DNA of 64,000 nucleotides from Dictyostelium discoideum (GCA_000004695.1 CM000154.2:3392001-3456000); one strand, 5' to 3'; positions 34,110 to 37,896 are shown, numbered from the stretch's first letter. The notes: generated by a model from the sequence alone, not told the origin. Numbers and translations are program-made.

Positions 34110-37100
34110 ATGGGTATTCCATCATTTTATAGATGGTTAATTGAAAATTTTCCAAAAGTTTTGGAAAATAATTTAAACGGAGAAATTAAATTTAATAATT
34201 TATATATTGATATGAATGGTGTTGTTCACAATGCTATTAAATTAGATCATAGTCCAACAAGTTCATCATCATCATCATCAACAACAACAACACCACCAAC
34301 AACACCAACAACAACTTATAGTAAAGATAAAGAAGTTGTATTAATGTTAAAATCAGAATTATCTGATGAAAAATTAAAAGAAAGAATATTCTATAGATTA
34401 GATCAAATGGTTAATAATGTTAACCCATCATCATTATTATATATTGGTGTCGATGGTGTACCACCAAGAGCTAAAGCGATTGAACAAAGAAAAAGAAGAT
34501 TTAAATCCTCAAAAGAGACAGTAGATGTTATAATAAAACAATTGAAATCAAAGAGTAAACCAATTACACGTGACTCAATTATTGAACAGTTTTCATTGAT
34601 ATTCGACTCCAATTCAATTTCACCAGCAACTGAATTCATAGAGAAGGTTGATGATTGGATAAAAGATTATTGTAAACAATTATCATTGAAACGACAGAAT
34701 CTATCTATCATCCTATCAGATTCAACCGTACCAGGTGAAGGTGAACATAAAATTATGGATTATATTCGTCAAAATCATCCAATTCTAAAAAAAGATGGTA
34801 TGTCACATTGTTTCTATGGTATGGATGCAGATTTGATTTTCCTAGGTTTAGAATCTCATTTATCAAATTTCTATATCCTTAGAGATCCAATATCTTTAAT
34901 AAGTTGTTCAACTTGTAAAGCCAATGATGATCATTCAAATTATGAATGTCGTTCAGCTATAGCTTTAAAAAAACAATTTCAAAAGAAATCAACATCAGTC
35001 ATAGTTAGAGGTATTCCAAATCAATGTAGTGAAAATGATATTAAACAATTATTCTCTTATTATGGTAATATTAAAATTGAAAAAATTGAAAAATCAAATA
35101 CAAAAAATAAAACTTTAAAGTAAGTTTAATAATAATAATTATTATTATTATTGTTTTATCATTTATATAATATTAATATTATAATTTTTTTACAAAAGTG
35201 CATATATAGAATTTGAAAATGAAGATATTGTAAATGAAGTTTCAACTAGAGGTTCAACATTTACAATTAATAATGAAAGAGTTTCAATTCATGTCGAATA
35301 TTTAGATGATATTTTTAAGCCAAAAAATGAAAAAGGTGAAATTATTAAAGATGAAGATGAAGAGCTAGCTGAACAAGAAAATCCATCTACTGAAAAAGCT
35401 AATCAACAATTGTTGACAGCAGAAGAAATAGCTAAAAAACAAAAAGAAGAACCCATACCAGAGAATGCTGTATTTATTGTTGGATTGGATTCAGCGGTTT
35501 CAAAATTCGATATAATAACATTTTTTGAAAAGTTTGGTAAAATCAGTTCATTCCAATTATCACCATCACCAAGATTTAATAAACAACAATTTGTAATGAT
35601 AAAATATGAAACTCAAGAATCTGCAAGATTAGCTTGTAAATCAACTGATATTGAATTCTTTGGTACAATAATTACAATAAAGAGAGCACAATTACCAAAA
35701 ACTGAATCAAACACAACCATTAACTCTAATGGTTCTTCAAAAACACCACCATTAACTGAAGAAGAAAAACAAGCCAAAGAAAAAGTTAAAGAGAAAAAAA
35801 GAATAATTAAAGATTCAAAGATTCAACAAGTTTTAGCAAAATTTGATCCAAATACACCAAAAGATGTTGCAATATTTTATTTAGGTCTTTCAAGTTGGAA
35901 TGTTAATAGAGCATTTGAAAATTATTTATTATTTAATAAAGCTGGTTTAGAACATACAATTTTAAATAATACTACTGATAATGACAACAACAACAGCAAT
36001 GGTAGTGGTAGTGGTAAAAAGAAAAAGATATTATTCGATTATGTTAATATTGATTCATTTAGAACTTATTTAGAATATTATTTCTTTGAAAAAATTGAAA
36101 AATCAAAAAGAGAGAAAATCAATTTCAATAGAGTTATTAATGATTTCACAGTTTTATGCTTTTATTTGGGTAATGATTTCTTACCACATTTACCATCAGT
36201 TGGTATTCAATCAGGTTCAATTGAATTAATTATGTGTTGGTATAGAGAATGGATACAAAATTGTTTAAATGGTGATGATGATATTAAATACATAGTTAAT
36301 GAACAATCAACTCATTTAAATTTTGAAAATTGTTTACCACTTTTAGAATCTTTAGCAGATTGGGAATCAAGTTTATATCCAGAGAATTTAGAAAAACAAG
36401 TTAAAAAAGATTTTATTAAAGTAAATAAGAATTCAACATCAAATGAATCGTCATCAATTGTAATGGTACCACCAGAATTTAAATATGATGATTTATTATA
36501 TTATAGAGTTAAATTTGATTTAATTGGTAAACCAGATGACCAAGTTAAAAAGTTGGTTGATGACATGTGTTATCAGTATACATTAGGCTTGCATTGGGTT
36601 CTAAGATATTATGTAAGTGGTTGTCAAGCTTGGGATTGGTATTATCCATATCATTATGCACCATTGGCAAAGGATTTATTAAATTATCAAAAGAGGTTAT
36701 CAAAAATTCAAGATAGAGAAATGGTTAATAATCAATTCAACTTTAAATTAAGTTCACCATTACCACCATTAATTCATTTAGCAAGTGTATTACCAAGAAA
36801 TTCAGTTGCTTTCTTACCAGATTCAATGAAACATATTGTTAATGAAAATTCACCATTCACTGCATCCTACCGTGACGATTATAAATACGATTTCAATGGT
36901 GAAAATGTTGCTTGGAAAGCAATTGTATTATTAGATTTTATGGATATTGAAAAGTTTAAGGAATATTTATTACCAATTGTAAATAATGAATTAACTGATA
37001 ATGAAAAGAAAAGAAATTTAATTGGAAATGATATAAAATTTAAAAATGGTGAAATAATTCAATTATCACCTCTTTGTAATAATACTACTACCAATAATAA

Positions 37101-37896
37101 TAATAATAATTATGAAGAAAAAGAAATACCATGTATTAATATAACAAAGAATTTAAGTATTAAAGATTTATCATATCCAACTCGTAATTATTTTACACGT
37201 TCATCTCATCCAGTTATCGATTCAAATTATATTTCAATTCCAACTCAACAAGCATCAACAGTTGATCATAATCAATTAGTACCATTAACAAAAGAACAAG
37301 CAGACTTTTTACAATGGAGAAAATCAAAAACTGGTTTTAATCAATCTTTAGAGATCTTACAATCAATTGATTTCTCAAAATGTGGTTGTGTAAATATTGA
37401 TAAGAAACAAATATCCCAATTCAGTGGTAGTGGTGCTGCTACTGCTACAATTACTTGTTGGTTAGGTAGAGTTTTAAATAATGAAATATCAAGTGATTCA
37501 ACTATTTTCATTCAATCAATTGATGATTCACAATTAATAATAAATATTGGTTTTAAACAAGCTGTAAAATTAACTTCAATTAAATTTGTTTCATCTTCAA
37601 ATAGAGTTCCAGATAGAGATTCAGTTCCAAAAGTTATTAAAATCTATACAAATAATGATCAACCAAATATTGATTTCTCTGTAATTGAAAGTTTAACTCC
37701 AAAATGTACAATTGAATTTTCTTCACCATCTGAACTTGAATCCTATTCTTCTTCAACACCATTCTCTTTTGCTAGTGGTACTACTACTACCAATACCAAC
37801 TTTAAATCAGTAAACAATTTAACAATTTTCATTGAATCTAATTTCTCTAAAAATCAAGATAAAGTTTCAATAATTGAAAAAATAATTTTATCTTAA
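34110..37896 (+). CDS. 5'-3' exoribonuclease (XRN family) carrying an internal CCHC-like zinc knuckle + 2xRRM + UBA-like insertion and a C-terminal PITH-like domain. About 1235 aa in 2 exons.
   Basis: join(34110..35119, 35199..37896). The donor is TTA AA|GTAAGT (35120) and the acceptor is caaaAG (35198); the 79-nt intron is phase 2, and AA+T gives Asn. XRN catalytic motifs present: MGIPSFYRWL...LYIDMNGVVH, LSDSTVPGEGEHKIMDYIR, FYGMDADLIFLGLESH, then, after the insertion, DFTVLCFYLGNDFLPHLP, and WDWYYPYHYAPLAKDL...SPLPPLIHLASVLP. The insertion (about aa 260-590) contains CSTCKANDDHSNYEC. It then has RRM1 (VIVRGIP...LNAYIEFENE) and RRM2 (VFIVGLD...KQQFVMIKYE). Finally it has a UBA/TAP-C-like segment (KDVAIFYLGLSSWNVNRAFENYLLF). 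The C-terminus (ITCWLGRVLNNEI...IFIQSIDDSQLIINIGFKQAVKLTSIKFVSS...PKVIKIYTNN) resembles a PITH/DUF1000 beta-sandwich. Confidence 0.85.

Follow-up and report, generated by a model that had tools for sequence, protein, structure and literature searches.

The window analyzed here is a stretch of 64,000 nucleotides (nt) of the Dictyostelium discoideum genome (GCA_000004695.1 CM000154.2:3392001-3456000; 21.7% G+C), and positions 34110-37896 of its plus strand hold the gene DDB_G0289921. The product of this gene is likely to be a third, probably active XRN 5'-to-3' exoribonuclease of this organism, in which an Xrn2-like core carries a cassette that would act as an arm for capturing substrates or as an adaptor. 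The cassette, made of a zinc knuckle, two RRMs, and a UBA-like helix bundle, interrupts the catalytic domain, and a PITH domain ends the protein.

XRN enzymes usually reach their targets with the help of separate partners: Xrn1 relies on decapping factors and ribosomes, and Xrn2 on Rai1, Rtt103, or XTBD proteins. Here, domains of the RNA-binding and adaptor kind form part of the catalytic domain, inserted at the loop in which the zinc finger of Xrn2 aids RNA affinity. The gene is a natural experiment on the effect that an accessory RNA-binding arm has on the affinity, processivity, and specificity of an XRN, and it occurs in Dictyostelium, which is genetically tractable. It also means that the census of one Xrn1 plus one Xrn2 for Dictyostelium missed a paralog. 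Because the domain composition can be read from public annotation, where the four Pfam families of DDB_G0289921 are already precomputed, the gain is one of recognition and context, and not of a new kind of enzyme.

Gene model and domain architecture

Two plus-strand open reading frames (ORFs) occur in the locus, one at 34110-35123 and a second one reaching 37896. Without splicing, the frame runs immediately into a stop at 35121-35123; excision of a phase 2 intron of 79 nt (35120-35198, GTAAGT...AG), located within RRM1, restores the frame and completes this domain with AYIEFE. Exon 1 (34110-35119) comprises 336 complete codons and the first two bases of codon 337; it covers XRN_N and the zinc knuckle and breaks off halfway through RRM1. 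Exon 2 (35199-37896) is a single unbroken ORF, which supplies the remaining half of RRM1 and then encodes RRM2, the UBA-like domain, XRN_M, a linker, and PITH, up to the stop codon at 37894-37896. The spliced coding sequence of 3708 nt gives a protein of 1235 amino acids (aa), identical at all residues (100%) to XP_635977.1 (EAL62473.1, UniProt Q54GU2) of D. discoideum AX4, which databases label only as 'hypothetical protein' or 'Uncharacterized protein'. The splice check and this identity confirm the two-exon gene, the intron, and the protein length proposed in the initial annotation of the stretch, which was made from the sequence alone; the internal stop that would have spoken against that model is absent, the sole stop of the spliced frame being the terminal one. 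The motif blocks quoted there were all found in the exons to which they had been assigned, with MGIPSFYRWL, GEGEHK, and GMDADLIFLGL in exon 1, and LGNDFLPHLP and WYYPYHYAP in exon 2.

DDB_G0289921 is one genuine gene. The possibility that two or three neighboring or nested genes, encoding the N-terminal half of an XRN, an RRM protein, and the C-terminal half of an XRN with PITH, were wrongly fused into one model has a probability close to nil and is already effectively refuted. An exon-2-only gene call of 828 aa (P0384), present in one collection, would fit such a fusion, but the intron cuts RRM1, so that the ORF of each exon covalently joins half of RRM1 to half of the nuclease, and this excludes the separate nested RRM gene that the initial annotation had envisaged. 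In addition, isolated halves of the nuclease could not fold, the gene span holds no other ORF of at least 80 aa on either strand, and the same order of modules recurs in eight dictyostelid genomes and, for two further amoebozoans (Cavostelium apophysatum and Nolandella sp. AFSM9), within one assembled transcript each. As for P0384 itself, which derives from Logan assemblies, it corresponds to the ORF running from a TTG at 35410 to 37896; it was rejected as a shorter isoform and is regarded as an artifact of prokaryote-style gene calling on short contigs.

The architecture of the protein is almost certainly that of an XRN core with a zinc knuckle, two RRMs, a UBA-like bundle, and a C-terminal PITH domain. 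The Pfam search with the 1235-aa translation returned four families above their cut-offs: XRN_N (aa 1-259; 6.4e-65, 219 bits versus 22.9), XRN_M (two stretches; 1.6e-54, 186 bits versus 23.8), RRM_1 (PF00076, two stretches; 1.5e-15, 57.2 bits versus 20.7), and PITH (PF06201, aa 1052-1232; 2.3e-26, 92.9 bits versus 23.7). UBA_4 (aa 558-580; 0.0036) scored 17.5 bits, under its cut-off of 21.8. Further support was provided by a full-length AlphaFold2 (AF2) model, built for the D. firmibasis ortholog that is 81% identical to the D. discoideum protein. In this model, the XRN core has a pLDDT mostly above 90. Both RRM folds are also seen, together with a bundle of helices and a C-terminus rich in beta-strands, and segments of pLDDT below 50 separate the modules. 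The single protein with an insert-bearing XRN core and a PITH-like C-terminus that had been proposed is hence supported in every architectural part.

Nuclease core and inserted cassette

As judged from its sequence, the product of DDB_G0289921 is very likely a catalytically competent XRN 5'-to-3' exoribonuclease. The first half of the core, XRN_N, is encoded at 34110-34886 (aa 1-259), and the second half, XRN_M, at 36028-37122 (aa about 614-978), the latter being delimited by the Pfam match and by alignments to 5fir, 9e70, and 3pie. The catalytic, pocket, and stacking residues proved invariant when eight orthologs and 51 XRNs were compared, the reference being the acidic residues D35, D86, E176, E178, D206, D208, and D292 of Xrn1, together with K93, Q97, R100, and R101 of its 5'-phosphate pocket. 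All seven acidic residues that bind Mg2+ are present, with D34, D115, E210, E212, D239, and D241 in the first half and D663 in the second. The pocket residues K122, Q126, R129, and R130 are invariant in the ortholog alignment, and so are the stacking residues H40 and W815/W817, the latter located in AWDWYYPYHYAP. The twelve listed core residues are identical wherever the sequences cover them, and eleven are invariant columns among the eight orthologs; D34 is missing from only two gene models, both truncated at the N-terminus. A phmmer search of the PDB gave matches to Xrn1 and Xrn2 chains at 1e-62 to 3e-71, and the core of the D. firmibasis model matched Rat1, XRN2, and XRN1 structures in Foldseek with E-values of 1e-31 to 1e-20. 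With an intact fold and all the functional residues conserved, the simplest interpretation is that the enzyme is active.

What sets the protein apart is the insert in its catalytic domain. Residues 262-613 have no counterpart in the solved XRNs to which the sequence was aligned. The insert falls between residues 229 and 244 of human XRN1 (9e70), where it replaces about 15 residues, and between residues 255 and 266 of a zinc-finger-deleted C. elegans XRN2 (5fir), where it replaces about 11. These sequence alignments assign it to the zinc-finger loop of Xrn2, in agreement with the surface loop named in the initial annotation. The spacing from G-x-DADL to GNDF-x-P is 417 aa, whereas 376 XRN-family proteins have a median of 105 aa and a 5-95% range of 82-132. 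Among these 376 proteins, the insert is exceptional and far from what chance would give, so the description of the architecture as unusual was justified. The order of its elements is CCHC knuckle, RRM1, an acidic linker predicted to be disordered, RRM2, a Ser/Thr-rich linker, a Lys/Glu-rich helix, and the UBA-like bundle, and the whole forms a cassette of about 350 aa that is predicted to sit on flexible linkers in the zinc-finger loop.

The CCHC zinc knuckle (34905-34949, aa 266-280) has the sequence CSTCKANDDHSNYEC. Its ligands C266, C269, H275, and C280 are unchanged in the eight orthologs; their spacing is CX2CX5HX4C in the D. discoideum group, with one extra residue, and the canonical CX2CX4HX4C in more distant dictyostelids. 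The zf-CCHC family of Pfam did not match the D. discoideum protein. A CCHC knuckle is a trait of Xrn2 and is generally missing in Xrn1 (PMC9512700). In CtXrn2, the zinc finger resides on a flexible loop at the active-site face and transiently contacts the region round the active site, and its deletion lowers RNA affinity 1.5-3 fold (PMC9512700).

The two RRMs follow the knuckle. RRM1 (34989-35313, interrupted by the intron; aa 294-375) was found by Pfam RRM_1 and, in the AF2 model, has the beta-alpha-beta-beta-alpha-beta fold at D. firmibasis residues 283-361. RRM2 (35461-35694, aa 425-502) corresponds to the second RRM_1 stretch, has matches to Nup35-type RRMs, and occupies residues 417-489 of the same model. 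RRM_1 was matched in all eight orthologs, and the RRMs of the D. firmibasis model align with tandem-RRM structures at 1e-8 in Foldseek. In the PDB, RRM2 matches the RRMs of PUF60 and NIFK at 5e-5. Since it retains an invariant RNP2 phenylalanine (F429) and, in most orthologs, an aromatic residue at position 3 of RNP1, RRM2 is the better candidate for RNA binding of the classical type.

The last element of the cassette, encoded at 35776-35958 (aa 530-590), is the Lys/Glu-rich helix leading into a three-helix bundle, whose compact part spans about aa 540-590. UBA_4 matches five of the eight orthologs at E <=0.1, and the aligned segment of the Cavostelium protein exceeds the UBA_4 cut-off (5.5e-9, 36.1 bits) and also matches UBA_8 and TAP_C. 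A family profile of the UBA-like region run against PDB sequences found as best hit the UBA of p47, which is not significant (E 0.96). The AF2 model of residues 514-590 has three helices and a pLDDT of 85.6, and the top 50 Foldseek hits are nearly all UBA, CUE, TAP-C, or NAC-UBA domains, with probabilities up to 0.99 and root-mean-square deviations of 0.7-2 A over about 40 residues; their E-values exceed 0.4 because the domain is short. Taken together, these lines of evidence lead to a UBA-like fold being accepted. The CCHC-like knuckle and the UBA/TAP-C-like bundle of the initial annotation are supported: the bundle is UBA-like by its fold and by its Cavostelium homolog, with a subthreshold UBA_4 score, and the knuckle has invariant ligands, with no family match in D. 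discoideum.

PITH domain, proposed role, and alternative readings

Beyond the core, a linker predicted to be disordered (37123-37341, aa 979-1051; model pLDDT below 50) carries two motifs conserved in the ortholog alignment, KDLSYPTRNYFT and FLQWRK. It connects to the PITH domain (37342-37893, aa 1052-1235), for which the family assignment rests on the profile match at 2.3e-26 and on a resemblance to PITH domains of known structure: PITH is found in seven of the eight orthologs, and the profile built from these seven matches At3g04780 (1xoy) at 1.2e-17 and the PITH domain of TXNL1 at 3e-16. The beta-rich, PITH-like C-terminus reported earlier was thus correctly recognized. The protein ends with ...IIEKIILS, one residue past the conserved segment IIEKIIL.

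The roles that can be assigned to these modules are tentative. The cassette would be a built-in arm for substrate capture or an adaptor, in which RRM2 and the knuckle keep the single-stranded body of an RNA with a 5'-monophosphate by the entry channel; this might increase affinity or processivity, or make the enzyme selective for certain RNAs. RRM1 and the UBA-like domain would more probably dock protein partners, an assignment favored because RRM1 has lost the aromatic residues of its RNP motifs. The C-terminal PITH beta-sandwich may be a further docking module, one that Cavenderia, at least, does without.

Several observations weigh against an active enzyme with such an arm. RRM1 is non-aromatic at RNP2 position 2 and RNP1 position 3 in every dictyostelid ortholog of the alignment and may be non-classical in RNA binding, so that of the two RNP-bearing RRMs claimed initially both hold by profile and fold, while the first lacks the canonical aromatics. 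RRM2 has just two of the three canonical aromatic residues, and with one RRM degenerate and the other incomplete in this respect, RNA binding is not assured. The AF2 model has a pTM of 0.61, at which the placement of the modules relative to one another is untrustworthy. The ten proteins with the insert do group together in a neighbor-joining tree of 528 core columns, but with a bootstrap of only 21%; monophyly is therefore not claimed from the core, and the case for a common origin is based mainly on the insertion that they share. A literature search found no paper on DDB_G0289921, nor on an XRN with RRM, UBA, or PITH modules. Finally, the D1-D4 domains of Xrn1 (PF18332, PF18334, PF18129) gave no match at E <=1, and the PDB alignments stop by about residue 950, with no detectable match to the Xrn2 C-terminal segment that forms the surface for Rai1 and XTBD partners. 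In the established Rat1 and Xrn1 structures, this segment and D1-D4, respectively, buttress the active site. As D1-D4 are missing here and the segment was not detected, full activity without a partner is uncertain.

These two apparent absences, along with the disorder of the model past about residue 940 (pLDDT below 50 at D. firmibasis residues 941-1072) and the fast evolution of the dictyostelid core (distances of at least 1.2 to other XRNs), would also suit an inert scaffold of XRN fold, whose core merely clamps 5'-monophosphate RNA ends and which uses the RRMs, the UBA-like domain, and PITH to bring in further factors. Such a scaffold is highly improbable, because the strict conservation among dictyostelids of the seven acidic residues, of the K/Q/R/R pocket, and of the stacking His and Trp would be unexpected were hydrolysis dispensable. 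Even less credible is that DDB_G0289921 is simply the Dictyostelium ortholog of Rat1/Xrn2, engaged in nuclear termination and rRNA processing and decorated in a lineage-specific manner. The best matches of XP_635977.1 outside the amoebozoans are indeed Xrn2/3/4-type proteins, Rat1 and XRN2 lead the structural matches, and the knuckle is of the Xrn2 type. However, the Xrn2-specific C-terminal segment was not detected, and D. discoideum has a distinct Xrn2/Rat1 homolog, XP_646407.1, named 5'-3' exoribonuclease, which is the reciprocal best match to Rat1p (8.9e-136), next to an Xrn1 homolog, XP_643245.1 (PMC5862402 Table S6). XP_635977.1 appears in neither the Xrn1 nor the Xrn2 list of that table and, as these two homologs are separate proteins, it is a third paralog.

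A third XRN that is probably active, with a putative partner-binding or substrate-binding arm, can be compared with the known enzymes as follows. With Xrn2/Rat1 (3fqd, 5fir, 7opk) it shares the XRN_N and XRN_M core, the catalytic and pocket residues, and a CCHC knuckle in the same loop of the active-site face, whereas its loop has about 310-350 extra residues with two RRMs and the UBA-like domain, its C-terminus is a PITH domain, and a conventional Xrn2 homolog coexists in the genome. With Xrn1/Pacman (2y35, 3pie, 9e70) it has in common the catalytic core and the residues that define the mechanism, but it is much shorter, lacks D1-D4, and possesses the zinc knuckle. A precedent for lineage-restricted XRN paralogs beyond Xrn1 and Xrn2 is found in the trypanosomatid XRNB, XRNC, and XRNE (PMC5862402, PMC3854532), which belong to an unrelated lineage and for which an RRM, UBA, or PITH architecture is not reported.

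The initial annotation also suggested a link to the proteasome. According to this idea, the PITH domain would dock on the 19S particle as in TXNL1 and PITHD1 and the UBA-like domain would bind ubiquitin, so that RNA decay would be tied to proteolysis, for example at stalled ribosomes. The PITH domains of TXNL1 and PITHD1 bind PSMD1, PSMD4, and PSMD14 (PMC12700798). On the 19S particle, E136 and D162 of TXNL1 touch Rpn10, R234 touches Rpn2, and the last residue of the tail, H289, is on the zinc of Rpn11; mutation at each interface severely impaired proteasome binding (PMC12700798). The family was aligned to TXNL1 residues 118-289, by using a TXNL1 sequence whose numbering reproduces the four published residues and part of which matches the 1wwy alignment. 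Only one of the four contact features is kept: the equivalent of D162 is invariant in the PITH-bearing orthologs, within a D-[DE]-x-Q motif shared with TXNL1, PITHD1, and At3g04780, while the equivalent of E136 is G/S/Y/Q/F, that of R234 is S/T/K/G/A, and the C-terminal tail of TXNL1 type that inserts into Rpn11 is not present. The domain differs from TXNL1 also in being fused to a nuclease and not to a thioredoxin. It clearly belongs to the PITH family, but its residues do not support the TXNL1 mode of proteasome docking.

Coupling to the proteasome is then unlikely, even though PITH membership is solid and the UBA-like fold resembles the ubiquitin-binding UBAs of EDD, hHR23A, ubiquilin, and FAF1. 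Besides the replaced contacts, the PITH coding sequence is missing at the Cavenderia locus and in the Cavostelium and Nolandella transcripts, and the UBA-like fold serves partners other than ubiquitin too, as in TAP-C, which binds FG-nucleoporins, and in the UBA of NAC. A broader proposal is very unlikely: that the protein represents a third amoebozoan class of XRNs in which substrate selection is built in through the RRMs, and that in dictyostelids the UBA-like and PITH domains tether it to the ubiquitin-proteasome system, thereby coupling RNA decay to protein degradation, for instance in co-translational quality control. The interest of the enzyme would be higher if such a link were true, but the present evidence speaks against it.

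Distribution among amoebozoans and neighboring DNA

The distribution of the architecture was examined with a profile of the eight orthologs, searched against 1.84 billion representative proteins, and with local hidden Markov model (HMM) scans of 381 fetched proteins. Dictyostelids alone scored above 1400 bits, all other proteins reaching at most 470 bits except the plant-like P0121. The module order is common to the genomes of D. discoideum, D. citrinum, D. firmibasis, Polysphondylium violaceum, two EukProt species, Acytostelium subglobosum, and Cavenderia fasciculata, and it is complete, with PITH included, in seven of these, the C. fasciculata protein being devoid of PITH.

When the fetched proteins were scanned with subprofiles of the insert and PITH, RRMs at the same site outside dictyostelids were found in two proteins only, each from a single TRINITY transcript, and no further comparable insert was seen at this site among the 376 sampled XRNs. 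The protein of Cavostelium apophysatum (EP01114_P020017, P0129) has a knuckle, one canonical RRM, and UBA_4 at the same loop, and differs from the dictyostelid form by having a second CCHC knuckle at the C-terminus. That of Nolandella sp. AFSM9 (EP01128_P002982, P0145) has two canonical RRMs followed by a segment that is UBA-like by eye, and no knuckle. PITH was found in neither transcript. Both proteins resemble the dictyostelid one in the succession of RRM(s) and UBA-like domain and in their intact catalytic motifs. Unlike dictyostelid RRM1, their RRMs have retained canonical RNP motifs. As the insert of RRM and UBA-like domains also occurs in Cavostelium and Nolandella, it is probably older than the dictyostelids; together with the dictyostelids, these two lineages span Evosea and Tubulinea. 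The PITH fusion has so far been seen only in dictyostelids.

The missing PITH of Cavenderia is not explained by a truncated gene model, which was considered and rejected. The ortholog (L001; GL883018.1, 4001-7359) terminates just past the conserved motif KDFKWATRYLITLSP, six-frame HMM scans of the 4 kb downstream, up to 11359, found no PITH, and the next gene downstream encodes a P2X receptor. Acytostelium has PITH and, on the accepted tree of the dictyostelids, the absence in Cavenderia looks like a loss.

Other proteins of the survey attracted attention for different reasons. P0121 (1248 aa, 688 bits) was rejected as an intermediate relative, since it lacks both RRM and PITH; its entire catalytic core is present as a tandem duplicate, which inflates the score, and it is likely a merged tandem gene pair. 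P0241, with a loop of 206 aa, was likewise discarded, the loop being a low-complexity insertion at a different subsite. P0264, a partial XRN2-like protein of 609 aa from a JGI metagenome, has two RRM_1 domains at residues about 345-515, past the GNDFLP block and the tower, in the linker between CR1 and CR2. As these RRMs occupy another site, this protein suggests that XRNs have captured RRMs more than once, independently. In P0285 (732 aa), from a marine metatranscriptome, two ubiquitin repeats are in frame N-terminal to a knuckle-bearing protein of XRN2 type; this fusion probably stems from a chimera of the assembly or from polyubiquitin read-through.

Regarding the surroundings of DDB_G0289921, the upstream ORF on the plus strand (33059-33763) encodes 234 aa, with hydrophobic N- and C-termini that flank a Cys-containing domain followed by a long tract rich in Ser, Thr, and Lys, and resembles a surface protein that is secreted or anchored by glycosylphosphatidylinositol. 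The intergenic 346 bp between this ORF and the XRN gene (33764-34109) are almost pure A/T with long runs of oligo(dA) and oligo(dT), as is usual for Dictyostelium promoters. Downstream, a convergent ORF of at least 517 aa on the minus strand (38004-39557), whose end is about 107 bp from the XRN stop codon, contains poly-Asn and poly-Gln runs and the 'FNxxI..LPxxLxxLxFGxxFN' repeats that are typical of the FNIP-repeat proteins of Dictyostelium.

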